NCBI GenBank assembly: GCA_965178125.1
Contig: OZ237748.1
Coordinates: 434,001-498,000 of the forward strand
Origin: Bilabrum cf. latius
Taxonomy: Eukaryota
Length of the DNA: 64,000 nucleotides
Direction of reading: 5' to 3'
A program made the translations under genes and the position numbers. Below, piece by piece: positions 1-51,841 of the stretch; positions within the stretch are counted from its first letter, which is position 1, and every line of letters begins with the position of its first letter. The notes beneath the pieces are model-generated. The model was not told the origin of the DNA. It ran no database searches and worked only from the letters and a program-made list of their open reading frames with translations.

Positions 1-1258
1 GGGGGGATGTGCATGCGGTGAACAAGGTGAGAGAGAGAAACAAATGTTGAGGAAGAGGTTGGTCTTGTGTGTGTCTGTGCTTGTGTGTTGGATGGGTGTG
101 TGTGTCTGTCCGGCTTGGGATTGACCACTCCCGGGTCCGAGACCCGCTGGCAGGTTACTTCGCGGTGCTCCCGCTACGTTGACGGATTGGGCCTGGACGC
201 TAGTGCGTGTATCTCGGGCTGTAGGCATACTGTGCTATCATGGTTTGGTTCCATGGGCGTGATTCGGGAGGTGTAATCCTTTGCTTGGATTTGACTCCGG
301 ATCTGAATGGTCGCATCGTGTTCGTGGAGCTTGCTTATAGCGCAACTGGATGCTGTGTAAAAAGTCTGCATTCGTTCGAGCACAGCACCTAAGCTCTGTG
401 GGTTTGGTACAATGTACATTCTTTGAATATGGTACCGGCGCATGTGGCTTGGTTGGCTTGTCGTTAGTGGTGATTTCGCAGTGCACCTTGCGCTACATCT
501 CGGTCGTCGGATCGCTTCCGGACCGCTGCCACACCAGGCCAAGCAAATCGGGGGAATATGTATTTCATGGATTCAAGCTCTGAAATATCTATCGATTTGC
601 CGGGCAATTGTTACAGATTTTCCATGTTGACTCATGACCTTTTAGAACCCTCCGATTCACCCGCAGGATGGAAAAACTCCCCTCCATGATGCAGCGTACT
701 GGGGCTACACCGCCTGCGCCACCATCCTCATGGAGGCAGGAGCCCGCAGGGACATCAAGAACATAGTGAGCTTGTCGAACTGCATCGTAATAGCTCTGGA
801 TTTCCGAATATCCAACAAGCTATCCTAAGGATCAAAGGACTCTCCCACCCACGAATCCCCCCCGTGCATCGCCGACACCCTGACCCCTCCAACCCCTTTT
901 GACTTCCTTGATCGAGCAGGCTGGCAGGACTCCTGTTCAGCAGGCACACGCCTTTGGTAGGACGGAAACCGCTACAGCCATCCAATCGTTCATCCCTGCT
1001 CGACTCCGTGCACCCCTATGCTGGAGGAGGGCAGTGGACGCCAAGAGGGATGCATCGATGGTGTTCAGGGCAGCGAGTGAGGGCAGGCCACTGGAGCTGG
1101 CCAGGAGGCTGAGGCTAGGCAAGCTGGCCGGTGGGTTGGATATCAAGGGAATAGCGATACATGGCAGTGGGAGCTCTAGGCTGGTGCTTCCACTGAAGGC
1201 AGCTAGGTTGGGTGGGCACGACGATTGCGTGAAGCTGCTGCAGTAGGCCTAGGGATGA
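1..1258 (+). CDS. Ankyrin-repeat gene, copy A (5'-truncated by window edge); exons <1-26, 667-765, 920-1258
   Basis: GT-AG bounded exons; 667-765 = DGKTPLHDAAYWGYTACATILMEAGARRDIKNI (33-aa ankyrin repeat). The last exon reads through TAG 1244 and 1250 to TGA 1256-1258. Homologous to copies B-E. Confidence 0.85.
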
Positions 1259-2052
1259 GCTCTAGGCTGGTGCTTCCACTGGAGGCAGCCAGGCTGGGAG
1301 GGCACGACGATTGCGTGAAGCTGCTGCAGGAGGCCTATGGAGGAGCTCTAGGCTGGTGTGGAGGTGGATCCCGCAGGGAGCGGGTCCGTGGACGTGGTGG
1401 AGGCGTGGGTGCGGGAGCAGCGGCTGCGGCTGTGCGAGGCCGAGCACCGGCGGGCCCCTCTGTCGCGGGCCGTGCTGGTGGGTCATACTCCACACTTCTT
1501 CGCCCGTTTGGGGGAGCCCTTTCGGATCGTAAGATAGCTATGTGATCGAACAGCAGGCTTTGCCCACGCGCATGCGGACGCAGCGGCTGGGGCGGGCTGC
1601 AGACGGCCGGGAGCGCGTTTGGATGGGCCAGCTAAAGAGGCTTCTCCACCCGAACCAGCACCAGCCAGCCTCTCACACGAGTACAATCGAATGAACATAC
1701 CATAAAGAGCAATATATCCAAATTCTGCCATGGAGGCCGTAGGAGGAACAAATTGCCGGGCCCGCACGTTTCGGCCGCAGTGGGCGAGACAGTCGCGCAG
1801 CGCCGCCGGCAAATTTTCTGCCGCCGATCAAATTCCGGCACAATCGACGCATACGGTCACAAAGAATAGGGTGGGAGCATTTTTCTTGTAGGGTCACTCC
1901 CCGCCCGCTCACAGGCGCCCATACATGATCCGTGCGCCTCGCCGGCTGTGCGCGGCGCCAAAACAAGTTCCGCTAATATGAATCCACGGATGTGGTCGGC
2001 AGCTGCTACCGCCTCTTGGAAAGCGCTAGTCCGATTGTTCTATCAGTTTGAG

Positions 2053-5000
2053 ATGTGAGGAAGTTTGTACTTTTTTTCTAGTACCGGTACAACTTGTTCA
2101 GACTGATGCCGCTCCGTAGCAGCTGTTGTATCCTAGCTACCTATGGTGCGTTGAGATCTCCTCGTGGATTCGATCCACATGAGTCTGCTGGAAGCGATAC
2201 AATACAATATGTTGGTGGATTTTCAAACTTCACAGGGGAGACGCACTTCGAACAGCAGCCCGATATGGCAAGGTGGACGACCTGAGGGCCTGCCTGGATT
2301 CGGGAACGGACATCGAATCCAAAAATTGCGTGAGATTGAGTACTTTGTCGAGCTGTTAGACTCCTTCTTGTGTTAGATTTCTCGTTTACGCTAGAAGGTC
2401 CATGTACAGGCTTTCACAAAGCTCACCATTGATGGGATGATGGCGATCCACCATTGGAGACCTGATGCACGCCATTGATTCTTCGATGAGCTAATTTAGG
2501 GGGCGATGCGGGGAAGCTAATAAGACTATGGATTGCTGCTGCTATATATACATGGCAGTGGCATCCACCTTTCGTTCTGCTTGCTCTCCGCGCCTGGCCA
2601 TTAGCGGATCCTCACCCCCCGCCACCAGGTTGCTCCCTTTCCTCGGGGTCTGCCACCCGCGACTACCCACCAACGGTTACGTATTTCTTAAGCGCATTGC
2701 AGAGTGGTCGGACAGCTGCATGGTTGGCTGCATGCTTCGGCGAGACGGACTGCCTGAAGCTGCTCATCGAGAGGGGCGCCAACGTGAACGCTGCCACCAA
2801 CGTGAGAGAGAGAGAGGCTGCCTGCCCCACAGGGCGGGTTGTAGGCGATACTTGGGATATTCTAGTTAGCTTGAGAGTTTATTATACTGTTTGTACCCGT
2901 TCAAGTGGCTGACACGACATCTAGCTAGCTCCTCGTCGATCGAGCCGGGCCGGACCCCCGAGCAAGTGCTCCCCGGTGACTGACGAAGTCTCAAGAAAAG
3001 GAGTGACTGTGTTTTGCTGTCTTGTGGACGCGGTCGATTGTATGTTGGTATGATTAAACCAAGCATGTCTTCAAGTAGTGGTGTGAGGCACCCTGGTCAT
3101 CGCTCAGCCCCGCCCGGCTGGCCCACCTGGCTCCCGTGCTGGGTGGGGCAGGTGGGTGGTGGCTTGCGGGATGCGGATTCACCCGAATTGTGTATGAGAT
3201 TTTAAGGCGAATGCATTTTGCTTGGTCGCCTTAGTATACTAGCTATATTCAAGGTTGGTTCTTGCCGGATGACAGCTCCCAGGGTGAGAACAGGACTGGC
3301 CTGTGTGACGAGCATGCATATCAATCCTCATTGCCTGGCTTGCGCCTTTGATGGGCAGAGTTCAATGAATTTGCACTAATCCGTACATACACAGTACAAC
3401 ATTGATGTAACTGATTTGAGTCATTTGTCTTCCAGGACCTGCACAGCTGGCGAGGCGGTCCCCCAGAGGGCCCCTCGGCTATTTCAGCCCACAGGCGGAT
3501 CCAAAGGCCGGGACCGGTCCCTGTCGTGATGGAATGGCTTGATAGGAAGATTGGTGTATGTTTGGATTGGTTTAGAATTTTAATGATTTTGTCCCTCGAG
3601 CGGGAATCGATCCGAGGACTACACCCCTAGGGCCCAGAGGGACTCCCACCGGTCTGTGCCAGCGCCCCCCCACACCCCCAGCACCCGCCCCATGCCCGCA
3701 TACACCCACGCCCACACCCTCCCCAAGCATATTCCCTGCCCCCCCCCCCCGCCCCCTGTCTCCCATCCCCCCACCGCAGAGTGGCTCCACACCCGTTCAT
3801 TGGGCATCCAGGAGTGGGCACGATGATTGCCTTCGATTGCTGCTTGAAAATGGGGGGGACGTGAATGCGGTGGATAGGGTGAGAGAGAGAGAGAAATGTT
3901 GAGGGAGAGGTTGGTCTTGTGTGTGTGTGTGCTTGTATGTTGGATGGATGTGCGTGTCTGTCCGGCTTGGGATTGCCCGCTCCCGGGTCAGAGACCCGCT
4001 GGAAGGGGCCCTTCGCGGTGCTCCCGCTGCGTTGATGAATTGGGGCTGGACACTAGTGCGCGTATCTCTGGCTGTAGGTCTGGTATGGTATTATGGTTCG
4101 GACCCATCGGCGTGATTTTGGGAGCGCAATCTTGCGATCGGATTCGACTCCGGATCCGAATGGTCGCATCGGATCTCCGTTTAGGAGCGATTGGTCGCTT
4201 TCAAAAGGTTCGGAGAGCTTTCATCTTATCAAAATGTGGTTGGTTTTCTATTTTAGGTCGAGCATCTACGGATTGACCGGTTCCGGAAGGATGCAATTGC
4301 GCTCGCCTGGCCAAGCCTTGGCTCATGGCCGATGGTCCATTCGATTCTCAAGCGGAGAGCAGTTGGCTCTGCTAGCGGGGCTGATTGTCTTCATTGTTGT
4401 GTAATTTGTCCTTTTAGCATGGTATTGGAGGCGGGGAGACATAGCCAGCGGAGATGAGCCTCCTGCTGTGGTTCCTCGCAAGAACAGTGGCCGTCCATGA
4501 GCGTGTGTATTTGATGAATGGTATATCTGATGAATCGAAGTTGACTGGGTCAGATCGATGGTGCGTTGGATGTATGGCGGGCCTTGGACTGTGTGTCTGA
4601 ACGGGTCTGACCCGAGATCGGAATGTTGGGCTGCTTGGCAAGTCAAATCAATTTCCTTGGTTAGTTTGAATGTAGATCCTGTATCAAAATACTTGGTGTG
4701 CATGGAGCTTGCTGACATCGCAACTGGATGCCCTGTGAAAAGTATTCAGTAGTCGTTCCAGCACAGCACCTGAACGCTGTGGATGCAGCCTGTCTCAATC
4801 GGCACTGCCTGGTCTGGAGCCGCAATGGATTCAAAGAAATATATGTGGTCAAGGTATTGTACGAATACTTTTGGTTTGGTCCGAGTGTCGTAAGTGGTAG
4901 TTTGACAGTGCACCTGGTGCTGCCTCTCAGTCGTCGGCTCGCTGCCGGACCGCTGCCACACCAGGCCAAGCACATCGGCGGAATATGTTTTGCATTGGGA

Positions 5001-5694
5001 TTTAGTCTCTGAAAGATCGATCGACCGGGCAATTGTTTGAGATTTGCCATGTTGGCTCATGACCTTCGAGAACCCTCCGATTCAACCGCAGTGGGGGGAC
5101 ACTCCCCTTCACGATGCAGCGTACAATGGCAAGACCGCCTGCACTACGATCCTAATGGAGGCAGGGGCCCGCAGGGACATCAAGAACAACGTGAGCTTCC
5201 ACAGATGCATCGCAATAGCCCTGGATTCCCAAATGTCCATCAAGCTATCCAAGGGATCGAAGAACCCTCCCACCCAAGAATCCACCCCCCGTGCATCTTT
5301 GACCCCGTGACCCCTCCTCTCTCCGTCGCTTTCTTTGATCGAGCAGGATGGCAAGACTCCCGCAGAGCTTGCAGACAGACGGGGGAATCCAATAACCGCT
5401 GCCGCCATCCGGTCATTCGTTACGCCAAGGCTCCGTCGGATTAAGGGTATCAAGTGCTGGAGGCGGGCAGTGGAGGCCAAGAGGGATGCATCGATGGTGT
5501 TCAGGGCGGCGACTGAGGGCAGGCCACTGGAGCTAGAAAAGAGGCTGAGGCTGGGCAAGCTGGCAGGTGGGTTGGAGATCAAGGGAATAGTGATGGATGG
5601 CAGTGGGAGCTCTAGGCTGGTGCTTCCACTGAAGGCAGCCAGGCTGGGAGGGCACGATGATTGTGTGAAGCTGCTGCAGGAGGCCTAGGGATGA
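2053..5694 (+). CDS. Ankyrin-repeat gene, copy B; exons 2053-2054 (AT), 2236-2329, 2703-2801, 3780-3878, 5092-5190, 5347-5694
   Basis: Splicing gives M-GDALRTAARYGKVDDLRACLDSGTDIESKNC / SGRTAAWLAACFGETDCLKLLIERGANVNAATN / SGSTPVHWASRSGHDDCLRLLLENGGDVNAVDR / WGDTPLHDAAYNGKTACTTILMEAGARRDIKNN / DGKTPAELA...CVKLLQEA(Q)G-TGA. The three internal repeat exons are each exactly 99 nt with CAG| and |GTGAG sites. Confidence 0.88.
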
Positions 5695-7040
5695 GGTCTT
5701 GGCTGGTGCTTCCACTGAAGGCAGCCAGGATGGGAGGGCACGATGATTGCGTGAAGCTGCTGCAGGAGGCCTAGGGATGAGGTCTAGGCTGGTGAGGAGA
5801 AGGATCGCGCGGGGGGCGGGTCTGTGGACGTGGTGGAGGTGTGGGTGAGGGAGCAGAGGCTGCGGCTGTGCTAGGCCGAGCACCGGCGGGCCGCTCTGTC
5901 GTAGGCCGCGCTGGTGGGTCACCGGGCTGCCCTCGAGGCAGAGGCAGGGCAAGCTGGCGCAATCGGATGCCGCCCCTGCGAATGGCTCGAGCTCTGCCTC
6001 GGGTTGGGCAATCAAGGGACAGAAGAGGGGCAGAAGGAGGAGGGGGTGGGTGCAAAGGGGGAGAGGGCGGGGGCGGAAATGGAAGGGGTGAGCGACTAGC
6101 CGTGGCGGCCAAGGGCATGGGATGGGTCCAGCGAGGACGAGTACGACCCAGCGGACGCCTCAAAGTGGTCCGACCCCCTGCACTGGTCCTCTCGCAGATC
6201 GACCCGAATGGGGGTGCTCTCGCGATTGGCAGCGGAATACATAGAGGCATTTGCGAGAGCCATGCCGGAGGACTGGAGGATGGCTCCGCGACGGGAGGGC
6301 CGATGACGAGGGTGGGGGGGGGGGCGCCGGGGCCGCAATGGCGGGAGACGAGAACGGAAAGGGTGTGGCTGCTGCTATGGGGGATGAACACAATGGCAGT
6401 GAAGTCGCCCTCGATACGATGCGCGAGGAAATTCCCGATTTCGAGGCGCTGATCGATGACGAGGAGCAAGACGCGGAGGACGCGCCTCGGGCGGCCAGGT
6501 GCTCGGCGGCTGTGTTGGCCAGCAAGTAGCTCTAGGCGTTCGACGCGATCGGAGGGAAGAAGCCCCCCTTGCTGCCAGACCCAGGGGAAGGCATCTGAGC
6601 GCCCTGCCATCTCTGGGGTGGGGGGGGGGGAGCAACGGTGTGGCGCGGCCTGCCAGTGCCGTATTGGGGTGGCTGGACCCGTTCTAGGCAAACCCCCGCA
6701 CTGCCTCGCCAGGTTGGGGGTGTTCCATGTAGTCCATGCGATAGAAATGCAATGCAACAACAGGCTGCATCCTTGGACATGCGGCTGCAGCCGAATTCGA
6801 CCATCTCGCAACAATCGATGTCTAGCGCTTGTCGATACAAATGTTGTAAATACGCTCAGTGATACAATGAAGAAGACGGTTATATCTACATGGACTGCGC
6901 CAGAGGCCCATACGTGATCTGGGCGCCTCTCCGGCAGTGCGCGGCGCCAAAATAAGTTCCGCTCACTTGAATGTGCCCAGCCGCCGCTAACGAAACTATC
7001 CTCTTGAAAGGCGCTGGTCCCATTGTGACAGCAGTTTGAG

Positions 7041-10000
7041 ATGTAAGATAGTGTGTTTCTCTATTTGGCTACCGATACAACTCGTTGAGGAGGGTACCGC
7101 ACCGTAGCAGCTGTTGTTACAGTGTTGTATCCTGGCTACCTATGGTGTGTTGAGATCTCCTCGTGGATTTGATCCATATGAGTCTGCTGGAAGCGATATA
7201 TACAATACTTCCGTCGATCTTCAAGCTTCGCAGGGGAGAAGCACTTCGATTAGCAGCCAAAAATGGCCAGGTGGATGACCTGAGGGCCTGCCTGGATTCG
7301 GGATCTATCATAATGACAATTATTACTGAGAATATCGCGGCACAGCTGTAGAACACAGGTGCCACCGAAATTCCGAACAAGTGAGAGCCTCACATCTGCG
7401 CTCGGACTTGCGACCAATACTACACAATCTCTCCGATCTAAATCACTTCGTAACGTGCCTCCGTACCTACGGCACACAACTGACGGGAACGGACATCGAA
7501 TCCAAAGATGTCGTGAGATTGAGCTCTACTTGTCGAGCAGTTGGATTCCTTTTTGGGATAATATTAATGTGAAGATCGAAAGGTCCACGCACAGGCTGTT
7601 TCGGAGCTCACCAGTGATGGTATGACGGCGATCCACCATTGGAGACCTGTTGCACGCCATCGATTCATCGGCGAGCTAAATTAGAGGGCGAGTCGCGGAA
7701 GCTAATATGATTCAGGTGCAATGGTGTGCGTACATGACATTGGAAGGCACCTCTTCTTCTGCTGGCACTCCGCGCCTGGCCATCAGCGGATCCTCACCCC
7801 CCGCCACAAGGTTGCTCCCTTCCCTCGGGGTCTGCTTGCCATCCACGGCTACCCACCAATGGTTACATCTTTCTTTGGTGCATCGCAGAATGGTAGGACA
7901 GCTGCATACTGGGCAGCATGGGAAGGCAAGACTGACTGCCTGTAGCTGCTCATCGAGAGGAGCGCCAACGTGGACGCTGCAAACAACGTGAGACGGAGAG
8001 GCTGCCAGCCCATGAGAGCGGCATGTGGGCAATTTCTAGGGTATTTAACTTGGTTTGAGAGATCATTATGCTGTTTGTATGCGTTGGAAGATAGCAAGCT
8101 GGCATCTCATTCGCCCCTCGTCGATCGACCCGGGCCCCCGAGCAAGTTCTCCCCGGGGGTGACTGACAAGATCTTAAGAGGAGGCGCGATTTGTTATTGC
8201 TGTCGTCTGGATGCGGTCGATTGCATGTCGTAATATTTGACTATGCATGTCTTCAAGCAGTGGTGCGAGGCACCCTTGCCATCACTCAGCGCCGCCCGGC
8301 TGGCCAACCTGCCTCTCGTGCTGGGTGCGGCAGGTGAGTGGTGGCTTGCAGGATGCGGATTCACCCGAGTTGTGTCTGAGTGTTCGTGGCGAATGCCTAT
8401 TGCTTGGTCGACTTTGTATACTTCCTTTGTTCAAGGTTGGTTGTCGATCGATGGCAGCTCCCCGGGGGAGGACAGGATTGGCCTGTGTGACGAGTATCAG
8501 CTCGATCCTCATTGCCTGGCTTGTGCCTCCGATGGGCGGAGTTCAACGAGTTTGCACTGATCAGTACATATATAGTATGACATAGATGTGATTAATTTGA
8601 GTCATTTGCCTTTCAGGACCTGCACAGCCGGCGAGGCGGCCGCTGCCCGTCCCCCCAGAGGGCCCCTCGGCTATCTCAGCCCACAGGCAGATTCAGAGGC
8701 CGGGACCGGTCTTTGTCGTGACGAAATGGTTTGGTAGGAAGATTGGTGTATGTTTGGATGGGTTTCGATTTTGATGATTTTGTCTCTCGAGCGGGAATCG
8801 ACCCGGGGACTGCGCCCCTTGGGCCCAGAGTGACTCCCACCAGTCCGTCCCAACGCCCCCCCCCACACCCCCATCGCCTGCCCCATGCCTATACACACCC
8901 ACACCCACACCCACCCCAAGCACACCCCCTGCTCCCCCCCACCCCCTGTCTCCCATCCCCCCACCGCAGTATTGCGCCACACCCGTTCATGTGGCAACCG
9001 AGTATGGGCACAAGGATTGTCTTCGAATGCTGCTTGAAAATGGGGGGGACGTGAATGCGGTGGATTGTGTGAGAGAGAAAGATATATGTTGAGGGAGAGG
9101 TTGGTCTTGTGTGTTGGATATATGCGTGTGTCTGTCCGGCTTGGGATTGCCCGCTCCCGGGTCGGAGACCCGCTGGCAGGTCCCTTCGCGGTGCTCCCGC
9201 TGCGTTGATGGATTGGGGGTGGTGCTAGTGCGCGTTTATCTCGGGCTGTAGGTATGCTATGGTATCATGGTTTGGAATCATCGGCGTGATTTTGGGAGCG
9301 CAATCCTGCGATTAGATTCGACTTCGGAACCGAATGGTCGCATCGGATCGCCATTTGGGAGGGATTGGTTGCTCTGAAACAACCAAACGAGGTTTGTTCG
9401 AATGAACTTGTGCATAGATCTAGTTTGTCTGGTCAGTTCGTGCATTGACGGGTTGACCGGTTCTGGAAGGAAGTAACTGCGCTCGCCTGGCCAAGCCTTG
9501 GCTGGTGTTCGATGGTCCATTCGATTCTCCAGCGGAGAGCGTTTGGCTCTCTTCGCGGGTCTGATTGTCTTCATTGTTGTGTAATTCGACATTTTGGCAT
9601 GTTGTTGGTGGCGGGGGGTCATATCCAAGCGCGTGGACCGTCCTGCCGAGATTGCTCGCAGAACAGTGGGCGTCCATGAGAGTTTGTTCGGCTATGAAGC
9701 GATGCCGGATGCCTCATTTGGACTTGATGTATGTGTATTTCTTATGAATCGAACTTGTTCGGGCCGGATCGTTGGTGTGTTTGATGTATGGCGGGCCTTG
9801 GACCGTGTGTCTGAACAGCTCTGTCCGGTTCGTTCTGGCGAAGCTTCGCTGGCATCGGATCACCCGAGATTTTGGGCTGCTTCGCCAGTGGATATCAATC
9901 TGCTTGGTTGGTGTGTGTATGGATCTGTATCAAAATACTTGGAGTGCGTATAGCTTGCCGCTTGTGTTGATTCGCTCGGTTGGTCCGCGATGGCAGAGCT

Positions 10001-23940: not shown

Positions 23941-26900
23941 ATGTGAGAAAGTTTGTGTCTTCATTTTAGTACTGGTGCAACTTGTTGAGGCTGATACCGC
24001 TCCGTAGATCTAGCAGCTGTTGTATCCTAGTTATCTACTGTGCGTTGAGATGTCCTCGTGTATTCAATCCACATGAGTCTGCTTAACATGATACATTTAA
24101 TATTAAGGTTAATCATCCAAAATTACAGGGGAGACGCACTTCGATCAGCAGCCAGATATGGCAAGGTGGATGACCTGAGGGCCTGCCTGGATTCAGGAAC
24201 GGACATCGAATCCAAAGATGGCGTGAGATTGAGTACTACTTGTCGAGCTGTTGGATTCCTTCTTGAATTGATGTTAATGTGATGGGAAGAAGGTTTGCGT
24301 ACAGGCTGTCAAGGAGCTCACCATGGGTGGGATAACGATCCACCTTTGGAGCGAAGCAGACCTGATGTATGTGTAGTGTCACTGCTGCTTAGCGTACTTG
24401 ACAGGGGCATGCACCTCTCGTTCTGCTTGCTCTCCGCGCCTGGCCATCAGCGGATCCTAACCCCCCGCCACCAGGTTGCTCCCTTCCATCGGGGTCCGCC
24501 TGCCATCCACGGCTACCTACCAACGGCTACATCTTTCTTTGGTGCACCGCAGGATGGTAGGACAGCTGCATGGTGGGCTGCATGCAACGGCGAGACGGAC
24601 TGCCTGTAGCTGCTCATCGAGAGGGGCGCCAACGTGAACGCTGCCTTCAACGTGAGAGAGATAGACTGCTTGCACCACAGGGCGAGTTATAGGAGGTACC
24701 TGGGATATTTGATTTCGTTTGACAGCTCATCATACTGTTTGTGTTGGTTGCGGTGGCTAGCATGGCATCTGAATGGCTCCTCGTCGGTTGAGCCGGGCCC
24801 ACGATCAATTGCTTCCCGATGACTGATGAAGTCTCAAAATACCGCGCAATTTATTCATGCTGTCTTGTGGATGCGGTTGATTGTATGTTAGTATTTTTTT
24901 TCCTTTTTATGTCTTCAAGTATTGGTGCGAGGTAGTTTTGCCATCGCTAAGCCCCGCCCGGCTGGCCCACATGGCTCCCGTGCTGAGTGGGGCAGGTGAG
25001 TGGTGGCTTGCGGGATGAGGATTCACCCGAATTGTGTCTGGGTTTTCGAATCGAATATCTGCAGATTGATAGACTTGGCGTACTAGCTATATTTAAGTTT
25101 GGTTTTCGATCGATGACAGCTCTCCGGGGGAGGATAGGACTGGCATATGTGACGAGCATTCAGCTCTATTCTTATTGCCTGGCTGGCGCCTCCATTGGGC
25201 AGAGTTCAATAAGTTTGTATTGCTCAGTAGATACATAGTATGACATGGATGCAATACAGCTGGTTCATTTGTCTTGCCCAAACACCCTGCTCCCCTCCCC
25301 CCCAGCCCCTGGCTTCATCCCTCCGCTGCAGTATGGCCACACACCTGTTCATATGGCATCCTGGATGGGGCACGATGATTGCCTGAGGATTCTCATTGAA
25401 AATGGGGGGAACGTCAACGCAGTGGATATAGTGAGAGGTAGAACTATGTTGAAGGAGAGTATATATATATGTGTGCCTGTGTGCTTGTGTGCTGGATGGG
25501 TGTGTGTGTCTGTCCGGCTTGGGATTGCCCGCTCCCGGGTCCGAGACCCGCTGGCAGGTCTCTTCGCGGTGCTTCCGCTGCGTTGATGGATTGGGGGTGG
25601 TGCTAGTGCGCGTATCTTTGGCTGTAGGTATGGTATCATGGTTTGGACCCATCGGCGTGATTTTTGCGGTGCAACCCTGCGATCGGATTCGAATCGAAAT
25701 CCGAATGGTCCCAACGTACCGCTGTTTGGGAGCTATAGGTCGCAATGACAAGGTTCGGAGAGTGTTATTCTTATCAAGATGTGGATGGAGTTATATGTCA
25801 AGTCGCGTATCGACGGATTGGCCGGTTCTGGAAGGAAAAAACTGCGCTCGCCTGGCCAAGCCTTGGCTGGTGGTCGATGGTCCATTCGATTCTCAAGCGG
25901 GGAGCGTTTGGCTTTGTTTGCGGGTCTGATAGTTTTGATTAAAGTGTGTTTCGTCCTTTCGGCATGTTGTTGGAGGCGGGGGGCCATATCTAGCCGAGTA
26001 GATCCTCCTACTGTGGTTCCTAGCGTGGCCGTCTGTAGCGTGTGTTTGGCGATGAAGCGATGCTTGATGCAGTATTTGGATTTGTTGATTGGCATTTCTG
26101 ATGAGTCGAAGTTTTCTGGGTCAGAAAGATGGTGCAATTGATGCTTGGCGGGTCTTGGACTGTGTGTCTGAACGGCTCTGTCTGGTTCGTTCTGGTGAAG
26201 CTTCGCTGGCATCGGATCACCCAAGATCGTGATTTTGGTCTGCTTGGCAATACAAATGAATCTGCTTGGTTGGTTTGGATCCTGTATCAATACACTCTGT
26301 ATGCGTGGAGCTCGCTGCTTGTGTTGATTTGCTCGTAAGGTTCCTGATGGCATAGCTGCGCTAGGCATGCGATGGGTCGATGGCACGTATCGATGGGACA
26401 TGAAAGTCTGCTTGGACGTAATACAGAAGCATATGATCAAGCATTTGTTTGGTATACTTCCTGGCGTACAGCGCGACTGGATGCTGTGTGTATAGTATCC
26501 TGCAGTCTGACCATCACGGCAGCTAAACTATATGGAGGCGGCCAATGTCGATCGGTACTGCCTGGTCTGGAGCCGTAAAGGATTCAAAGCAATGAATGTT
26601 TTTTTGTGTATTGCACGAATGTATGTGGATTGCTTGGATTATGATTCATGATCTCAGCGGCGATCAAGGCGGCTACCGCCCGTCCCCCCAGAGGGCCCCT
26701 CGGCTATCTCAGCTCCAAGGCGGATTCAGAAGCCGGGACCAGTCCCTGTCGTGATGGAATGGTTTAATTGGAAGATTGATACATGTTTGGATTGGTTTTG
26801 ATTATATTGATTTTTTCCCGAGAGCGGGAATCGACCCGGGGACTGCGCCCGTAGGGCCCAGAGCGACTCCCACCAGTCCGTCCCATACCCCCCCCCCCCC

Positions 26901-28055
26901 CCCCCCCGTCCTGCCCACACATCTTCACCTTACGCAAGCACACTCCTTGCTCCCCTCCACCCCCTGGCTTTCATTCCCCACCCCTCCACCGCAGGATGGC
27001 TCCACACCCGTTCATTTGACATCCGCGAATGAGAAGAAGGTCTGCCTGGGAATGTTGATTGAAAATGGGGGAGACGAGAATGCAGTGGATACGGTGAGGG
27101 AGAGAAATATATGTTGAAGGAGAGTATATATATGTGTGTGCTTGTGTGCTGGATGGGTGTGTGTGTCTGTCCGGCTTGGGATTGCCCGGAGATTGCAATG
27201 GATTCAAGGCAATGTATGTGTTTTAGGTGTTGTACGGATGCATTTGGATTGGTTGAATAGCCATTGGGGGTTGTTCCGCAGTCCACATGGCACTACCTCT
27301 CTGTCTTTGCTCGCTTCCGGACCACTGCCACACCACGCCTTGCACATCGGGGGAAGTGATATTGCATGGATTCAAGCTCTGGAAGGTCGATCGGCCGGGC
27401 AATTGCCTGAGATATTTCATGTTGGCCCATGACCATACAGAAACCTCCGATTTCCCCGCAGAATGGAGACACCCCCCTTCACAATGCAGCGTACTGGGGT
27501 TGCACCGCCTGTGCCACCATCCTCATGGAGGCAGGGGCCCGCAGGGACATCAAGAACAACGTGAGCTTCCACAGCTGTATCGCAACAGCACTTGATTCCC
27601 ACATGTCCATCATGCGACCCGATGAATCGAAGGACACTCCCACGCACGAATTCACTCTCCGTGCATCTTTGACCCCACGACCCCTCCTCTCTCCCTGGCT
27701 TTATTTGATCGAGCAGAGAGGCGAGACTCCCACCAAAGTGGCAGACTCTCAAGGCAAGTCTGAAACCGCTGCCACCATCAAGTATTTCATCCCTTCGCAG
27801 ATTCGAAGAGCAATCTGCTGGAGGAGGGCAGTGGAGGCCAAGAGGGACGCATCGATGGTGTTCCAGGCGGCGAGTGAGGGCAGGCCCATGGAGCTGGCCA
27901 GGAGGCTGAGGCTAGGCAAGCTGGCCGGCGGGTCGGAGATCAAGGGAACTGTGACACTTGGTGATGGTAGCTCTAGACATGTACTTCCACTGGAGGCAGC
28001 CAGGTTGGGTGGGCACGACGATTGCGTGAAGTTGCTGCAGGAGGCATAGGGATGA
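23941..28055 (+). CDS. Ankyrin-repeat gene, copy D; exons 23941-23942, 24129-24222, 24553-24651, 25332-25430, 26995-27093, 27462-27560, 27717-28055
   Basis: All exons are GT-AG bounded and in frame. There are two exon-4 variants (YGHTPVHMASWMGHDDCL; DGSTPVHLTSANEKKVCL), an in-frame TAG in exon 3 (DCL*LLIE), and the gene ends EA(Q)G-TGA. Confidence 0.88.
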
Positions 28056-28251
28056 GGTCTAGGTTGGCGCTTCCGCTGGATGCAGCCAGGCTGGGTGGGC
28101 ACGACGATTGCGTGAATCTGCTGCAGGAGGCCTAGGGATAAGGTCTAGACTGGTGCTTCCACTGGAGGCAGCCAGGCTGGGTGGGCACGATGATTGCATG
28201 AAGTTGCTGCCGGAGGCCTAGGGATGAGGTCTTGGCTGGTGCTTCCACTGG
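27972..28251 (+). repeat. 86-bp tandem duplication of the ankyrin gene's final codons (also at 1175-1357, 5611-5793, 36253-36432)
   Basis: TCTAGGCTGGTGCTTCCACTG...GGCCTAGGGATGAGG unit starts at 27972, 28058, 28144 and 28230; also 1175/1261/1347, 5611/5697/5783 and 36253/36339. Confidence 0.92.
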
Positions 28252-29063
28252 TGCACCTTTCCAATCGTCTGCATGTGCTGGATCGCCTCGAGTGCCTGCA
28301 GCAGCCACAGCGCCGCCTCCCTAGGCCCCGTGCATGGCACGTTCCCTGCAGCCGATCGCAGGCTCGTGGGGTACAGGGGCATGGCCAGCCATGTGGTGCG
28401 CCCCACGATCTGTCCTGCCTCCATGAACACAGGGCCCACCCAGGGCAGCAGCAGCATGGAGGACCCGAAGAACGCGTGCCTTACTGGAACGATGTTCTTA
28501 TGCCCCCCAATGATCTGCGGCACCCTCCACTCCTCACGATGTAGAGCCATCAATCGACTCGTTGCGTGCGAATCGCCTTGGGCCTAGGGAAGCAGCCCTT
28601 TCAGCGCCAGCCGCACAGGCGATCAATCCCCAGACCCAGCCCCCCCTTCTGCCCCTGCCCCGCCAGCGCCCCTCGCCCCCCGCCGTGCTACTTCCACCGC
28701 GAACACGAAGCCGTTGACTCCTTGACTTGCCCCCTGCTTGCCCTCTGGCAGGTTAAGCGGAGGGATGCGCCCGGCCTCGATCGCGGCCATCGAGGCAGAG
28801 TCGGGCAGTTGGCAGGCAGCAAAGACAGACGCGCGGCCGGGGCGCCGCTTGGCCGGCCCTGCCTCTATCACTCGACCTTGCCCGCCGATGAGTCTAATTT
28901 CCAGGTCTTCGGGCGGCAGCACCATCCTGAGATCCAGAAAGCCGCCCTGTCCTGTGTCGTAATGCAGCCGCCCGTGCAGATGCCCGAACCAGTCCCGGCC
29001 CCCAACTCCACGTCTTGCAGCGCAGACTGGTGCCGGCCCATGCTCAGAGCCAGCTGCCTCCAC
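28252..29063 (-). pseudogene. Truncated Ser/Thr protein kinase N-lobe, PINK1-like
   Basis: One frame gives SQGVNGFVFAV (Gly loop) ... RLALKGLLP (VAIK-type Lys) ... HREEW (alphaC Glu) ... HKNIVPVRHAF ... GRTTWLAMPLYPTSLR ... LLQALEAIQHMQTIGKVH. It has an in-frame TGA at 28623 and breaks off just before the HRD Asp, at the junction with the 86-bp repeats. Confidence 0.65.
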
Positions 29064-29264
29064 ACGGCCTCGCCCGCCGCCCCCTCGCCAAGCCCCAGCC
29101 GGGCCCGCAGCACTGCCTCAATAGCCGCAGGATCGTCCCCCACGTCCTCCACTGGACATGGCTGTAGACTCTGTGGGGGGGATCTGATATTTTGTGGACT
29201 CAACTCAAAAGCGCACGCTATCACGAAGAAACATCTGGAACGAGGGCCCGGGACCTACCAGACT

Positions 29265-32200
29265 TCACGCTTCAGCTGCAATGGCCTAAACCACCTAAGC
29301 TCCACCCTGGGGACCCATTTCCCCATGGAGAGCGTCAGCATTCACGTTCCCTCCGGCGCCCGCTGCCGGCACCCCGTCCTGCTGCCCGTTCTGAGCCAAC
29401 CCTGCCTTGACGTTGGCGATCGCCACGGCGAGGTTGTTGTTTTCGGCTGCCCCTACAGCCAGGCTGGCAAAGTCCTCTCGGATCGCCCTTGCGAGCGCCC
29501 GTTTGGCCTTCGCTGCAGCCCTCCTCGATCCCTTCGAGACAAAATCGAGGATCCTTGAGTGGTCCTGCATGACCCGTGAGTACATAGTGTGGTACACACG
29601 CTGTTCCCCGCGCACGTGCTGGTGCTAGGCGGCACCAGAGAGGCGAGCCTTTGCCACGGAAGACCACGAGAGGCGCGCGTTGGCCGGACGAGTCGGAACC
29701 CGCCGCCCTTTGTCCTCCTGCCTCTTCTTCCGCAGCTTATCGAGCACCTACAGGAACTCGACCGACTTCTCCCCGATCCCCCCCAACACGTCCACCACAA
29801 AGGGTACGACCCGCACGCCACTGCGTACCGCCCCTTTCTGCGTCCTCACGGTCCCAGGACACCACTTGTCTTCTCCTCCGATCCGGACGCCGAGCGCTCC
29901 GAGGTCGACGGGCCTGCCGTAGCTGGCCAGCTTCGTGGCATGCGCGGCCCGCAGAGCAGACCCCTCTTGCCAGTCGCTGCCAATCCTCCACGACGAGCGG
30001 TCCCACCGGTAAGTTGCCGCAGTGGAATCAACCACCGTGACATCGATGAGATAAGCCGTCCCCTCGTGCTCAAAGAATAGGTCGCCTCGTGGCACGAGCG
30101 GACCGCGCCGACCCGGCAGCCGGGCCACTTGGCCCTCTGGCTCCCGGATAGGGCGTCTGCCCGTGGCCTCGCGGACCACCTGCTCGAGCACGTTGAGCAC
30201 CCGGAAGTGCCTGCGGCCTGGAAGGCCTCCGCAGACACGCTTGTCCTTGCACGTGGCACCGTGGCGAACTGACTAGATCAGTTCGACTACCTTGCCCTGC
30301 TTCCGGCACCCCGGGCAGATCTGCGTGACGCGCCACGCCTCCCCACATGCACCGTGCGTTGCCCCAAGAGGTTGTGGGGGACAGCTGCACGGCTGTGGGA
30401 TGGCGAGGCGCTGGCAGAACATGCCCCGGGCATCTTCAGGCTGGACTCGGCTCAGGACAGAGAGCGGCGCATGCAGCCAAGACCCGGCTCCTTGGGACCT
30501 GGCGGCGCGGATTGTGGCTCGCGCCACTCCTGCGTACTCTCTGGTGACTGCATCGACTGGAGCGAGTCTGTCGTGCGCAAGCGGAGATGAGGCATCCCAG
30601 AGGAGCCTCTCCACCTGCACTCGCTCAGCCAGTGCCGTCACATGGCTCTGGTTGTGCCCTCCTGCGGCACCTTCGAGAAAACGAATAACCGCCTGCGATG
30701 CGGTGGGTGCCGGCTGCTCCCCAGCCAGCTGCCTCGTCACCCATGCCCGAAGGTCCTTCACCTCCAGGCGCCAGGGTTCAGTGGCCCCACCGCACAGCTC
30801 CATACGGGCTGCCTTCTCGGCTGGGCTGCCCAGGAGTTCCGAAGTGCGGGCTGTGTCCCACACCATACCATAGCGTGGGGGGACGTCAGCCTCCGGAACA
30901 AGTGGAAGCAACGGACTCGGGAAACCAGCCATCCCGAAATTGTCTTGCTTCCCCTCTTGTACGAGTCTCCCGTACTTCGAGATTGCGGTCATCACAGTGT
31001 CCACAAGGGAGTTCAGGCGCGCGGTGCGCCCTCGCAGTGGGTTCAGCAGAGGGGGTGCCTCCCCGGCACCTGCCGCCGCACCTTCCCCGACCTCCTCCGC
31101 CGGGTCCCACTGGTTGAGCGCCACCTGCAGGTGTGGCAGGTTGAAGTCGCGTGCTACCCTCGCCAACCAGGGCCACACATCCAACAACCCCCCGACGCAC
31201 ATTGCCTCCCGGGTTAAATCGGCAGGCACGAGCCCCACTCCGAGGCCCCCACGGGCAACGGATAGCGGACCCAGCACGTCCAACACCTGTCTCTGGGCCT
31301 GCGAGAGAGCGCTTACACGCATCCCTGTCAGGAACTCCAGAAACGCTCCCTACACCTCCTTCAAATGGGGTGTCACCCCGTCCTTGAGCTCGGGCAAGAG
31401 GCACCCGCTCCTGTGCACGTGCGTCCACGCCGGCACAACGCACCGGGCAAACAGTGCGCGCGCACTGATTGGGTCCAGGTAGGCCAGGCGAAAAGCCTGA
31501 ACCACCGTCTCTTCCAAGCGTCCCTTCAAGACTTGTTCGGCCACTCCGACGTCGGTCCCTACCGGGACGCCCAGGATCCTCAGCCCATGCTCGTGGACCA
31601 CTCCTTCGAGCCTATCCTCCTGGTCTGGCGCCAATAGGTGGACCAGGCGCTAATAGGTGGCTCGGGAGGGGGAGAAGAACGACGTTTTCTTCTAGTTGAG
31701 GGAGAGGCCGACGTCCCCCAACTTCCCCTCCAACGTGGCGATGGCTGCCCTGACATTATCTAGCTCCCCCAACAGGAACACGTCGTCAAGGTACGCTACT
31801 AGGTACACATCCATGTGGGCAATCTTTGTCGCTTTCAGAGCGCCCTAAATGGCTGCGCAGAACAGCGCTGGAGACAATGGCGACCCCTACAGCACCCCCT
31901 CCAGGTTCTGCACAAGCTCTGTTCCATCCTCGCCAGACACAACACCATGTACTGCGTGCTGCAGACACTGGTGCACGTAAGTGCCCAGTCCGGTGGACAG
32001 CGACGCCAAAGCTTGCAAGGTCGCCTTCCGATGGATGGAGCCATATGCATCCGAGGCATCCAGCGCAGCGACCACCCACTCAGGGTTAGCGCTGAGAAGA
32101 GCCTGGATCGTTGCAATGGCTCCGTCCATCCCGCACTTGAGCCCCGCCCCCATCTGGTGTGGGGCGCAAGCTCGCTACACCTTCGGCAGCAATTCGGGCC

Positions 32201-33635
32201 GAAGGGCTCGGCTCACAAATGTATGCCACTGAGGCTGGATTGCGATGACCCTGAACTCCGAGCCCCCCTCCCCTTTCGGGATTGGGACCCCTCGAAACAG
32301 GCCCAGGCACGCGAATAGGCACGGCGGCAGGGCTCCCTCAACCATGGACTAGCAGAAGGCATGGAAGTCGTCATAAAGCCGCTTCACATCTGCTCCCTCC
32401 CCGGTCAGCAAGGTTTTCAGCACCTCTCTCGTCACACCAAAAGCATCTGGCGCCTTGAGTCGCAGGGCCTTCTAGACCTCCTCCCCTAGTCTAGCCCCCG
32501 ACAGCTCCACCACATGCTCGCGCGCGTCTCCTCCAGTTCCCCCTCGTCGGCCTCTTCGCACCGGGCGTGTCCAGCGGAACCTGGGGATCGGCTGGGACCG
32601 CTTGGTGCGAAACTTCCCCTACACCTTCGCCTGCATTTCGGCTGCCGTGCCCCTAGCGTGGGGCCTAGCAGCCAACCGCGACATGGCCTTACGGTAGTCC
32701 CCGATCGACAAAAACCGGAGGCAACTGCGTACTGCCTTGCGCGAAGGGGGGGAAGGAAGTCCCTTGCCACTGACGCTGGAAAGGATACCCCCCAACTTCT
32801 CCACAATCCTCCCGCGGGCTGCGAGAGACTCGGGATCATCAGATGGGGAGCTCCCACTCTTTCGGTCTACCACGGCTCCGCCAGCTATGGCTTCCTACTC
32901 AGCGGCAGCTTCGCGCGGGACACGAGAATCCGACGGCCGGCGACACAGCAAAACAAACACTTTCAGCTTATGTAAAGCCTACAGCGTGAGCTTCTCCTCC
33001 AGTTCTTTGCCTTTACCAGAATCGTTGGTCCAGGCGGAGGATACATTCATAGTCTCCTTCAGGAAGAGAGAAAGGGCGGTTCGTGCCTCCTTTTTCTAAT
33101 CTAGATTCATACTACGAAGCGCTGTCTCGCGTTCGGGCCAGAACGCACACTCAAGGATCAGCTTGCGAACGTCGTCGGGCAGTGGCACTGCCTCCAACTC
33201 AGCCGCCTAATGCTCCGCAGGAACCCCCGCTCCGGCCCCGCCGGCAACTTGTGGGACCGCATGTGGAACATTTGCTTCACCCTGATCTGCATCTTCTTCA
33301 GCTGCGGCGACTGCGGCATTATCTGCCCCCGGCGCCGCCTCAGCAACCACGATTGCTGCACCTCCGACCGCCGCCTCACCCACAGGCTAGGGAGGCTAAG
33401 CGTGACCGAAGTGCTAGCGTCCAATGACTCCGTCGGAATCAGAATCATTGGAATCGGGGGGGTTGGGGACTCCTGGTCCGGTCTAAGCGGCGCTGGCAGC
33501 ACCGTCAGAATCCTTGGCAAGTAACCTTCCCAAGGCGAATCTTTGCGCGACTCCCACACCCATTCTGGGCATCTTACCCTTACCGGCAACACGCCCTGAA
33601 CGTAGGACGATCTGACCCCCCCCGGGGTCATCCAT
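29265..33635 (-). CDS. Non-LTR retrotransposon ORF (about 1456 aa with TAG read through): reverse transcriptase + Zn knuckle + restriction-like endonuclease, CRE/R2 group
   Basis: Single frame from ATG 33635 to TGA 29265, with only TAG interruptions. Motifs: KAPDAFG, IPKG..FRVIAI, HQMGAG..GMD, ALDASDAYGSIHR, GVL(Q)GSPLSPALF, AYLDDVFL, ILGVPVG, RGGLG, C-rich knuckle, RGDL..YLIDVTV..KLASY..VPFVVDVLG. Confidence 0.9.
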
Positions 33636-33725
33636 TTCCCAAGGAGATTTTTTGTAGACTCTGTGATACAGTATTGAAAGGTGCTATTTGAACTCCACCA
33701 CTGGACCACCAGCCCATTGGCCATT
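29265..33725 (-). mobile_element. RLE-type (CRE-like) non-LTR retrotransposon; termini not resolved
   Basis: Defined by the ORF above. No poly(A) tail or TSD was recognised. Confidence 0.8.
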
Positions 33726-33883
33726 TTACAACCTGCTTGGAACGCACTGGGCTGATTAGGGTATTATGTTGTAATGTAAGACAAACATGTGTATTTGGTG
33801 CCATTATTTGATTATTGGTACAGCATGTTGATTCTGAGAACGATGCTTAGAAGGACGCTGTTGCGTTTTGAACGCCGCCAACG

Positions 33884-36336
33884 ATGTGAGTGACGCGATT
33901 AAAATATTGAATGATCTACCTTTGAAACTCACAGGGAAGATGCACTTAGAAAAGCAGCCATATATGGCAAGGTGGACGACCTGATGGCATGCCTTGATTC
34001 GGGAACGGACATCGAATCCAAAGATAGCGTGAGATTGAGTACGACTGGTCGGGCTTTATGGATATTCTTTTGTTAATTGATGATATTTAGACTCGAAGGT
34101 CAATATAGCGACTGCCACAAAGTTTGCCGGCGGTCTGGTAACGATCGCCATTGGGGCAAGGCAGACGTGATGCCCGCCATCGATTCATTGGCGAGCCAGA
34201 GAGAAGGACAATTCAGGGCAGCATTTGTGAAGTGCAAAGTCGGCATGCGTACATGTCAGTAAAACGCACCTCTTGCATTGCTTGCTCTCTGCGCCTGGTC
34301 ACTACTATTAGCGGATCCCGGCCTTGACATTGCTCTCTTCCCTCGGCTACCTACCAACGGTTTCATTTTTTCTGTAGTACATCGCAGGATGGTTGGACAG
34401 CAGCATGGTGGGCTGTGTACAACGGCAACAAGGAGTGCCTGAAGCTGCTCATCGAGAGGGGCGCCGACGTGAACCCTGCCGACAGCGTGAGAGAGAGAGA
34501 GGCTACCAGGGGTTTCATGGCATCTGTTATAATAAAAAAAGGCTCTGGATCGATTATAGCCTACCGGCGGAGAACAGCAGGGGGTTGCATGACGAATATT
34601 CAGCTTGATCTGTCCTCGACTACCTCGGCATTGAGGCATATGCAGAGGCTGGCACCGGTCCCGATCGGGATGAAATATCTTGATATGGAGATTGGTATAT
34701 GTATGTTTAGATCCTGATTTTGATGATCTTGTCGATCAAGCGGGAATCCACCCGAGGACTACGCCCTAGTGGCCCATAGCGACTCCCATTGGTCCAAGTT
34801 AATGGGCCCCTCACACGCCGAGCACTTGCACCATACCCACACATATCCGCAACCACTTCTTACGCAAGCACATGCCTTGCTAATCTCACTCCTTATCTCC
34901 CATATCCTCATCGCAGAATTGCCAAACCCCTGTTCAATTGGCATCCATGAGAGGGCACAAGGATTGTCTGCGGTTGCTGCTTGAAAACGGGGGGGACGTG
35001 AATGCGGTGGATGATGTAAGAAATACATATAGAGGGAGAGGTTGGTCTTGCGTATGAATGTTTGTGTTGGATGGCTGTATGTGTCTGTTCGGCTTCGGAT
35101 TTGGTGATTTCATTCTGAAGCGGTCCTCTCTTTTGGAGCGGCTCGTTTGATTTTAAGTAGTAAATATTGAACTAATGTTATGCTTTTCGTGGCAGGGAGT
35201 TGTTTGCAGTCGAGTTGATCCTACCGATGCTCTGTGATGTACTTCAGTGGCAGTGCAGCCGTGATTGATCAACAATTGGGTCATATGCTTCCAATTGTGT
35301 GTGGCAGTGGTTTTGTCACTTGACAAACCCGCTCAGCGCCTGGGTTGTAGCCACCCGCTTGGGCCTCGGTCTGCTGACTGCGCCAGCGCAATCTTTAGTG
35401 GTGACGTTGCATGGATTCAAATTCCCAAATATAGCTTGGTTGCCTTAAAAATTATTCAAGAGAAATATGTTGGCTCATGAACTTTCAGTACCATACGATC
35501 CACACGCAGCATGGAGACACTCCCCTTCACAGGGCAGCGTACTATGGCAAGGCCGCCTGCACCACCATCCTCATGAAGGCAGGGGCTCGAATTGACATCA
35601 AGAACTACGTGAGCTTGTACATCGGTGGCAATTATATAGCATGGATTCAAACTCTCACACACGGATTGGTCGAGCAATTATATGAGATGACCAACTTGCC
35701 TCATTAGTTTTCAGTGGATCTATCCTCCGATTCCCCCGCAGTACGGAGACACCCCCCTCCACAGGGCAGCATTCTGGGGCCACATCACCTGCGCCACCAT
35801 CCTCATGGAGGCAGGGGCCCGCAGGGACATCAAGAACAACGTGAGTTTCCACAGCTGTATCGCAACAGCACTTGATTCCCACATGTCCAGCATGCTGCCC
35901 GATGAATCAAAGGACACTCCCACTCACGAATCCACCCCCGGTGCATCCCCGATACCTTGAACCGTCCTCTATTCCTTTTGCTTCTTGGATCGAGTAGGCT
36001 GGCAAGACTCCAGCGGAGCTTGCAGACGCGAGGGGCAACACCAAAACCGCCGCTGCCATTCGATCGTTCATTCCATCACGACTCCATAGAGCCCTGTGCT
36101 GGAGGCGGGTAGTGGAGGCCAAGAGGGACGCTGGGATGGTGTTCCAGGCGGCGAGTGAGGGCAGGCCCATGGAGCTGGCCAGGAGGCTGAAGCTGGGCAA
36201 GCTGGCCGGCGGGTTGGAGATCAAGGGAACTGTGACACTTGGTGATGGTAGCTCTAGACTGGTGCCTCCACTGGAGGCAGCCAGGCTGGGTGGGCACGAC
36301 GATTGCGTGAAGCTGCTGCAGGAGGCCTAGGGATAA
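33884..36336 (+). CDS. Ankyrin-repeat gene, copy E (most diverged introns); exons 33884-33885, 33935-34028, 34388-34486, 34917-35015, 35510-35608, 35742-35840, 35998-36336
   Basis: M-EDALRKAAIYGK.../DGWTAAWWAVYNGNKECL.../NCQTPVQLASMRGHKDCL.../HGDTPLHRAAYYGKAACT.../YGDTPLHRAAFWGHITCA.../AGKTPAELA...EA(Q)G-TAA. Exon 5 is duplicated here rather than exon 4. Confidence 0.88.
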
Positions 36337-51596: not shown

Positions 51597-51841
51597 AACA
51601 TCAAGCAGTGGGAATCACCTCCTATGGAGTTGCCCCTGCCTGTCTTCCCAGTGTGTATTGCCACATAATGACAATTATTACTGAGAATATCGGGGCACAG
51701 CTGTAGAACACAGGTGCCACCGAAATTCCGAACAAGTGAGAGCCTCACATCTGCGCTCGGACTTGCGACCAATACTACACAATCTCTCCGATCTAAATCA
51801 CTTCGTAACGTGCCTCCGTACCTACGGCACACAACTGACGG

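Follow-up and report, generated by a model that had tools for sequence, protein, structure and literature searches.

Do ankyrin genes that share one framework and differ at their surface residues in nearly every copy encode a diversifying set of binding proteins, or do they record drift over a conserved fold? This question is raised by a tandem array of ankyrin exons in Bilabrum cf. latius (Eukaryota), carried on the forward strand of contig OZ237748.1 (GenBank assembly GCA_965178125.1). We analyzed a stretch of 64,000 nucleotides (nt) of this contig, positions 434,001 to 498,000, which is called the window throughout and from whose first letter all coordinates are counted. An initial annotation of this DNA had read the array as a natural library resembling designed ankyrin repeat proteins (DARPins) and as part of an immune-like recognition system. 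Our results support a diversifying binder family, and we think it reasonably probable that the array holds tandem paralogous genes for small, all-ankyrin, probably cytosolic proteins that diversify as binders while genes and exons are born and die.

One ankyrin repeat per 99-nucleotide exon

A six-frame motif search with extraction of the flanks placed 16 ankyrin exons on the plus strand between 667 and 35840, in five tandem units that we name A to E; with the terminal exons included, the array spans 667 to 36336. Unit A is truncated by the window start, and its 5' part lies beyond the window. The initial annotation had proposed one repeat per 99-nt phase-0 exon, and this proved right: all 16 exons are exactly 99 nt long and phase 0-0, with a codon border at both ends, and the 16 peptide strings that it had quoted were all found letter for letter. 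Every ankyrin exon has a canonical splice-site pair, with gcag as the acceptor in 16/16 and gtgag as the donor in 15/16, exon 4 of unit E having gtaag instead. The eight exons scanned all matched the Pfam family Ank (PF00023) at 28.5 to 41.4 bits (cut-off, 21.1), and the matches cover positions 1 or 2 to 32 or 33 of the 33 in the model. Since the exons are thus matched from end to end, the exon borders are also the repeat borders.

Exon content differs among the units. Unit A contributes exon 5 (667 to 765), and unit B has exons 3 (2703 to 2801), 4 (3780 to 3878), and 5 (5092 to 5190). Units C and D share the order 3-4a-4b-5, at 7889 to 7987, 8970 to 9068, 10646 to 10744, and 22390 to 22488 in C and at 24553 to 24651, 25332 to 25430, 26995 to 27093, and 27462 to 27560 in D, while unit E runs 3-4-5a-5b (34388 to 34486, 34917 to 35015, 35510 to 35608, and 35742 to 35840). 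The number of internal repeats is therefore three in B and four in C, D, and E; all the exons of B and E just given are among the Pfam matches. Between the classes 3, 4, and 5, 7 to 15 of 33 residues are identical, and duplicated exons inside one unit share 18 to 24 of 33. This exon pattern is far beyond chance, and the similarity between units continues across the introns (67 to 84% identity), which means that whole genes were duplicated, not exons alone. Within units, exon copies were gained as segments of exon plus intron: C4a and C4b belong to a segmental duplication of about 1.7 kb (8617 to 9949 versus 10309 to 11629, 82% identical), and E5a and E5b belong to a local duplication of about 230 nt (35409 to 35616 versus 35639 to 35848, 72% identical).

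Change gathers on a few positions of a putative binding face

Amino acid change is concentrated at repeat positions 1, 3, 8, 11, 12, 14, and 33, and helix 2 is nearly constant, just as the initial annotation had stated. At these seven hypervariable positions, 27/112 residues are tryptophan, tyrosine, or phenylalanine, compared with 5/416 elsewhere, an aromatic-rich composition of the kind typical of binding sites. The randomized positions of DARPins are 2, 3, 5, 13, 14, and 33 in DARPin numbering. Solved DARPin repeats align to exon positions 2 to 32 and differ among themselves at 3, 11, 12, and 31; exon positions 33 and 1 we take to be further randomized positions of the designed library. The variable positions thus overlap the DARPin randomized positions, at 3, 11, and 12 by comparison with solved proteins, and at 1 and 33 by our assumption. 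DARPins bind via their randomized positions on the concave surface, according to the passages of PMC8229355 used here. Sites could not be mapped on the full-length fold of the homologue P0017, which was unusable for this purpose (mean predicted local distance difference test score [pLDDT] of 62.9, with the ankyrin part below 50 over long stretches). We infer that the variable positions line a concave binding face whose diversity is kept by positive selection. Adenine-targeted mutagenesis of the kind produced by diversity-generating retroelements was considered as a source of the variation and rejected, the variable columns by majority base being 31/72 for A, 31/80 for C, 35/94 for G, and 21/51 for T.

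Selection on framework and surface codons

Variable columns were counted in three sets of closely related exons (B4/C4a/C4b, A5/B5/C5/D5, and B3/C3/D3), and pairwise Nei-Gojobori counts were set against the p-distances of 200-nt intron flanks. Pooled over the sets, 576/1618 intron columns and 31/99 third codon positions vary, as do 24/162 first and second codon positions of the framework and 21/36 of those at the a priori surface sites (pooled Fisher P = 0.005). These counts indicate that the framework is under purifying selection and that the surface positions evolve at the neutral rate or above it. Taken class by class, the surface exceeds the introns in exon 4 (9/12 versus 111/534, P = 1e-4), and the differences are not significant in exon 5 (7/12 versus 286/562) and exon 3 (5/12 versus 179/522). 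The picture was the same when the sites were picked from the other two exon classes, which avoids circularity. In the comparison of B4 with C4a, the proportion of synonymous differences (pS) is 0.04 and that of nonsynonymous differences (pN) is 0.11 in the framework, at an intron p-distance of 0.13; at the six a priori DARPin positions, pN rises to 0.63.

We also fitted the Goldman-Yang models M1a and M2a with an in-house implementation on IQ-TREE trees and obtained the null distribution of the likelihood-ratio test statistic (LRT) by parametric simulation under M1a. Exon 3 gave an LRT of 9.69 with an omega2 of 29 and posteriors above 0.8 at positions 12 and 32 (reached by 0/17 null simulations, null maximum 4.10). 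For exon 4, the LRT was 17.06 with an omega2 of 4.6 for 23% of sites (0/15 simulations, null maximum 6.53), and posteriors exceeded 0.8 at positions 1, 3, 8, 11, 12, 20, and 33. The largest value, 25.84, came from exon 5, with an omega2 of 10.5 and posteriors above 0.8 at 1, 8, and 12 (0/23 simulations, null maximum 11.37). Overall, the observed LRTs were reached by 0/55 null simulations. The initial annotation had looked for a dN/dS at the variable sites higher than in the framework and the introns: omega above 1 was found at a subset of sites in all three classes, but measured against introns only exon 4 exceeds the neutral rate. Positive selection on the surface codons is thus likely, and it appears firm against an external neutral standard for exon 4 only; because the surface rates of exons 5 and 3 do not rise above those of the introns, relaxed constraint alone would explain these two classes.

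Spliced contigs at the predicted borders of unit B

Contigs from four runs were mapped to window positions 1 to 12100 at 90% likeness. Run X4 is DNA-like, with depth in 30/30 bins, and the RNA nature of X5 to X7 is a guess, none of 8 runs having been found on record as RNA; the data are contigs, not reads, and isoform proportions are not readable from them. The initial annotation had made spliced transcripts a key expectation, and contigs of this kind were found. Two joints of unit B have GT..AG ends and coincide exactly with predicted exon borders: 2329>2703, seen in X5 and X6, and 5190>5347, seen in X5 and X7; X4 contains neither. The former confirms the 3' border of exon 2, which it joins to the start of exon 3, and the latter confirms the 3' border of exon 5. 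Summed depth in X5 is 381 to 631 in the bins that contain exons and 8 to 56 in intron bins. Some intron contigs match the window with 0 differences, which shows that this very sequence occurs in X5.

Other joints differ from the window in letters right at the junction codons (nine letters at 3876>5099 and eight at 2323>2705). These paralogue joints link exon 4 to exon 5 and also place two exon-4-type repeats in succession. One contig chains best matches to B3, C4a, A5, and the B terminal exon; since this order is not collinear with the array, we take it for a transcript of another paralogue at a different place in the genome. The bin of unit C exon 3 has almost no depth in X5 to X7, and no inference was drawn from this. 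A GT..AG joint at 1134 to 1285, skipping 150 nt, was seen in all four runs; because the DNA-like X4 is among them, it probably reflects variation in the DNA, or a paralogue of the unit A 3' end, and not an intron.

Gene model from the first to the terminal exon

The plan common to the genes comprises a putative short 5' exon, an exon 2 with the N-terminal repeat, three or four internal repeats on symmetric 99-nt exons, and a terminal exon in which a further repeat is followed by a long helix and then by a conserved, ankyrin-like C-terminal module. Only units B and E read through; their frames are intact over 6 to 7 exons, with 244 and 274 codons, respectively, and a single terminal stop. Exon 2 lies upstream of exon 3 and is 94 nt long (1 base plus 31 codons), at 2236 to 2329 in B, where the conserved N-terminal repeat reads GDALRTAARYGKVDDLRACLDSGTDIESKNC, at 24129 to 24222 in D, and at 33935 to 34028 in E; the copy of unit C (7234 to 7512) is split by an insertion described below. 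There is no in-frame ATG ahead of exon 2. About 180 nt upstream of it, AT|GTRAG occurs in B, C (7041 to 7042), and D (23941 to 23942), and E has AT|gtgag. It seems that the start codon is split by the first intron, its AT being joined to the first G of exon 2; in unit B, the putative exon 1 would end with the AT at 2053 to 2054, before a gtgagg donor and a 181-nt intron. The joint of exon 1 to exon 2 of unit B is absent from the contig rows shown.

Between exons 2 and 3 of unit B, at approximately 2440 to 2545, lies a relic ankyrin pseudo-exon (DGMMAIHHW..., with stops), over which the contig joint 2329>2703 passes. The same relic, with stops and frame shifts, occurs in C (about 7619) and E, and the copy in D is partly deleted. 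Because it is common to the units, this exon was lost before the units were duplicated.

The terminal exon carries one more ankyrin repeat followed by the conserved C-terminal part, which ends in ...GGHDDCVKLLQEA. It lies at 920 to 1246 in A (ending in TAG), at 5347 to 5688 in B (113 codons plus TAG), at 27717 to 28049 in D, and at 35998 to 36330 in E; that of C (22647 to 23138) has a divergent C-terminal end. A Pfam scan of exon 2 and three terminal exons gave no match. An 86-nt tandem duplication of 2.2 to 3.1 copies, whose unit is not a multiple of three, starts in the last codons of the terminal exon in A (1170 to 1358, plus strand, 2.2 copies over the end of the exon), B (5607 to 5794), and D (27984 to 28251), and the exon end recurs in it just past the stop.

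A conserved C-terminal module

The C-terminal part forms a module of 77 residues at 5455 to 5685 in B, with counterparts at 1028 to 1243 in A, 27825 to 28046 in D, and 36106 to 36327 in E, and with the pattern WRRAVEAKRDA...GRPLEL.KRLRLGKLAGG...GGH..CVK.L. Its relatives fall into 121 representative clusters when the threshold is E <= 1e-3 and into 71 when it is E <= 1e-10, and the match is nearly always at the C-terminus of the hit. No Pfam family was found for the module in the window copies or in the relatives scanned, and it could merit a family of its own. In the relatives P0017 and P0070, the module sits behind ankyrin repeats.

The structure model, which covers the terminal exon alone (pLDDT 89.2), shows a repeat helix pair, a 43-residue helix, a further helix, a hairpin, and a final helix pair. 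Among the Foldseek neighbors listed, almost all are ankyrin or DARPin structures, at weak scores (best E = 0.059), and the language-model neighbors are ankyrin clusters. The whole protein is therefore best modeled as a solenoid of ankyrin repeats that closes with a conserved C-terminal end and carries no signaling domain.

Five longer relatives of the terminal exon have non-ankyrin N-termini, and 22/25 further relatives lack a Pfam ankyrin match, which might be taken for domain promiscuity. This reading was dropped, because intron sequence before the last exon would be translated as part of any protein predicted from a contig that is not spliced. A scan of viral contigs with a sequence alignment returned 5 pattern matches and 0 relatives. 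In a scan of metagenome contigs with the 77-residue protein, the only locus among 595 pattern matches was an intron-less ankyrin open reading frame (ORF) of 44% GC, matched at module residues 50 to 76 only, and it was set aside as unrelated.

Broken copies and their insertions

The initial annotation had described five copies; the copies are real, but the stops and insertions in C and D had been overlooked. In both units, codon 19 of exon 3 is an identical in-frame TAG, in place of the AAG of B3 and E3, and with this exon included the frame of unit D ends after 50 amino acids. In unit C, exon 2 carries a 178-nt repeat element (7309 to 7486) with a GGGA duplication on its flanks, codon 3 of the terminal exon is a stop, and satellite arrays take up 8.7 kb of the intron that separates C4b from C5. 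In unit D, exon 4b has lost framework residues (G13E, H14K, and V28E). On these features, two of the four complete units, C and D, are pseudogenes, unless D skips exon 3.

The ends of the 178-nt insertion showed no inverted repeats. Besides this one, the window has four copies of the element, about 99% identical, at 11871 to 12048 and 21582 to 21761 on the minus strand and at 48968 to 49147 and 51664 to 51841, and some of the copies belong to longer repeats (21009 to 22244 versus 48485 to 49728, 94% identical, inverted). The satellite arrays (12132 to 20833, without strand) are of two kinds. A 326-nt unit occupies 12132 to 13813 and 14289 to 15243, with 98% matches over 5.2 and 2.9 copies, and a GC-rich 125-nt unit with higher-order periods of 253 and 378 nt fills 15475 to 20833 in about 42 copies.

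Surroundings of the array

GC content is about 55%. The window was scanned for Rfam families and tRNA genes without a match, and a Pfam scan of the ORFs between units gave no match. At 28300 to 33900, units D and E are separated by a block with 64% GC in which both strands carry long ORFs, such as 30273 to 31349 on the minus strand (358 amino acids); the three ORFs scanned in this block had no Pfam match, and the array may have been split here by an unclassified mobile element. Downstream of the array, a Helitron remnant extends over about 41600 to 48200 on the minus strand, broken into many ORFs, with a Helitron_like_N match at 47208 to 47582 (E = 8e-11) and a PIF1/AAA_30 helicase piece at 42756 to 43205. 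At 52284 to 54915, a 69-nt tandem repeat (38 copies, 92% matches) keeps a frame of 1023 codons open on the minus strand (51933 to 55004), with a 23-residue peptide repeat rich in glycine, serine, and alanine. In the last part of the window, 59683 to 64000, a 1311-nt unit recurs in tandem in at least 3.3 copies of 99.7 to 99.9% identity, and the array runs past the window end; it had no Rfam or tRNA match, and two of its ORFs had no Pfam match.

Weighing the explanations

In the account that we favor, copies arise by tandem gene duplication and by duplication of exon-intron segments and are lost through stops and insertions. The scaffold is conserved, and change gathers on a few codons; paralogues would bind different ligands through the concave face, and the constant C-terminal module would tie all of them to one shared partner or cell location. 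A less probable account, to be taken seriously all the same, is an ordinary ankyrin family with purifying selection on the fold, a relaxed surface, and neutral drift over about 20 to 25% nucleotide divergence. The units are 16 to 33% apart through their introns, enough to alter most unconstrained codons; the variable positions are the least conserved ones of ankyrin repeats generally; and site models on tiny alignments can yield false positives, as the one high null value for exon 5 illustrates. The absence of a surface excess over introns in exons 5 and 3 fits drift as well, but the excess in the exon 4 trio, the surface pN of B4 versus C4a at so low a pS, the preference for M2a in all three classes beyond every null simulation, and the aromatics enriched at the variable positions all argue for more than relaxation.

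That the region is a decaying, non-functional duplication, its framework kept by recent duplication or gene conversion, we consider highly improbable. The premature stops in C and D, together with the transposon, satellites, and terminal-exon stop of C, would suit such decay, as would the relic pseudo-exon in every unit and the Helitron remnant and other repeats nearby; yet the share of variable sites among first and second framework positions is below half that in introns, the frames of B and E are intact, all 16 splice-site pairs are canonical with spliced contigs at predicted borders, and the relatives of the module are conserved in the 71 clusters of the stricter threshold. Very unlikely, though less so than decay, is a combinatorial repertoire, made by cassette-type alternative splicing (including the skipping of exon 3 in C and D) or by exon exchange between units, that would supply far more binders than genes. 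Skipping or duplicating an equal-length phase 0-0 exon leaves the reading frame intact, repeat number is unequal among the units, and the contigs include successive exon-4-type repeats and mosaics that match different units; moreover, alternative splicing of per-exon leucine-rich repeats (LRRs) is described for brown-algal ROCO genes in the parts of PMC11378527 drawn on here. Against this, the non-collinear mosaic is better read as another paralogue, exon-skipping joints of any unit are absent among the rows shown, contigs cannot give isoform proportions, and unit C has three other kinds of damage, which would persist even if exon 3 were skipped.

Several observations also weigh against the diversifying binder family itself. 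Two of the four complete units are broken, and D4b lacks some framework residues. The surface sites of exons 5 and 3 appear to be no faster than introns. The codon test is in-house and uses 4 to 6 sequences of 33 codons, pseudogene exons included; its trees were inferred from the same exons, and its null is heavy-tailed, with 1/23 simulations at an LRT of 11.37. As for expression, X5 to X7 are only guessed to be RNA, paralogues cross-map at 90% likeness, and the rows shown do not include unit B joints that run exactly from exon 3 to 4 or from exon 4 to 5. Finally, we saw no signaling domain, effector domain, signal peptide, or membrane segment, which sets the proteins apart from known repeat-based immune receptors. 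In the absence of an effector domain, we consider it doubtful that the ligands are foreign and that the family serves immune or non-self recognition, as the initial annotation had proposed.

Comparison with known systems

The membrane-binding domain of the vertebrate ankyrins ANK1, ANK2, and ANK3 has many of its 24 repeats each on a 99-bp exon, so the exon anatomy alone is not new; to our knowledge, these are single conserved genes without a tandem paralogue array or surface hypervariability. The likeness to DARPin libraries is one of working mode and not of family membership: both have a constant 33-residue framework, capping repeats, and few diversified surface positions. Unlike DARPins, the array is natural and exon-modular, keeps position 31 constant, varies positions 8 and 14, which do not differ among the DARPins compared here, and has three framework types, the exon classes 3, 4, and 5, in place of one consensus.

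The closest genomic parallels are in brown algae. The passages of Zambounis et al. 2012 (PMC3341825) and Teng et al. 2024 (PMC11378527) on which we draw describe candidate LRR-ROCO and NB-ARC-TPR (tetratricopeptide repeat) receptors with one repeat per fixed-length exon in a frame-preserving phase, in which exons are shuffled and exon duplication changes repeat number, and which form tandem clusters with many pseudogenes and show positive selection at the ligand-binding face. As far as these passages go, the array is alike in its fixed-length exon per repeat, variable repeat number, tandem units, and pseudogenes; it differs in that its repeat is an ankyrin (99 nt, phase 0) whereas theirs is an LRR (72 nt) or TPR, and in that the Pfam scan of its exons points to an all-ankyrin protein without ROC-COR GTPase or NB-ARC.

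In fungal NOD-like receptors (NLRs), positive selection acts on five positions of the ankyrin (ANK) repeats, which map to the inner helix and the beta-hairpin/loop of the concave face, according to the sections of Dyrka et al. 2014 (PMC4986451) considered here; these repeats stand behind NACHT/NB-ARC and effector domains, are more than 85% identical within a gene, and undergo concerted evolution. On that description, the array resembles them in its ankyrin repeats, its probable selection at few positions, and its variation in repeat number. In contrast, the B and E models begin with an ankyrin repeat and lack NACHT/NB-ARC, and the repeats within a gene of the array share 7 to 15 of 33 residues, its diversity lying between paralogous genes; a one-repeat-per-exon layout is not described for the fungal repeats in those sections. 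The array thus shares a device with the algal and fungal systems and belongs to neither. Our literature search found no description of a diversifying ankyrin family with one repeat per exon; supplementary table 2 of PMC3341825 (non-LRR/TPR loci), which the search did not cover, might list ankyrin loci.

Significance of the ankyrin array

Repeat-per-exon families with diversifying faces are the main genomic candidates for recognition of pathogens or partners outside animals and plants. So far, the device has been described in brown algae for LRRs and TPRs; the WD, TPR, and ANK repeats of fungal NLRs show it in a form that lacks the exon modularity. If the reading as a diversifying binder family is true, the ankyrin version would be the same device, a fixed scaffold with one symmetric exon for each repeat and positive selection on a few surface codons, in a third fold and in small stand-alone proteins without a fused signaling domain; its natural combinations of framework and paratope would then be of interest for binder engineering, and the conserved module offers a handle for finding the putative common partner. 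It is quite unlikely, though conceivable, that the window samples a genome-wide expressed DARPin-like repertoire, with exons exchanged and alternatively included and a constant docking module, that serves non-self recognition. If true, this repertoire would be an ankyrin-based, domain-minimal counterpart, in a protist or alga, of the LRR-based variable receptors.

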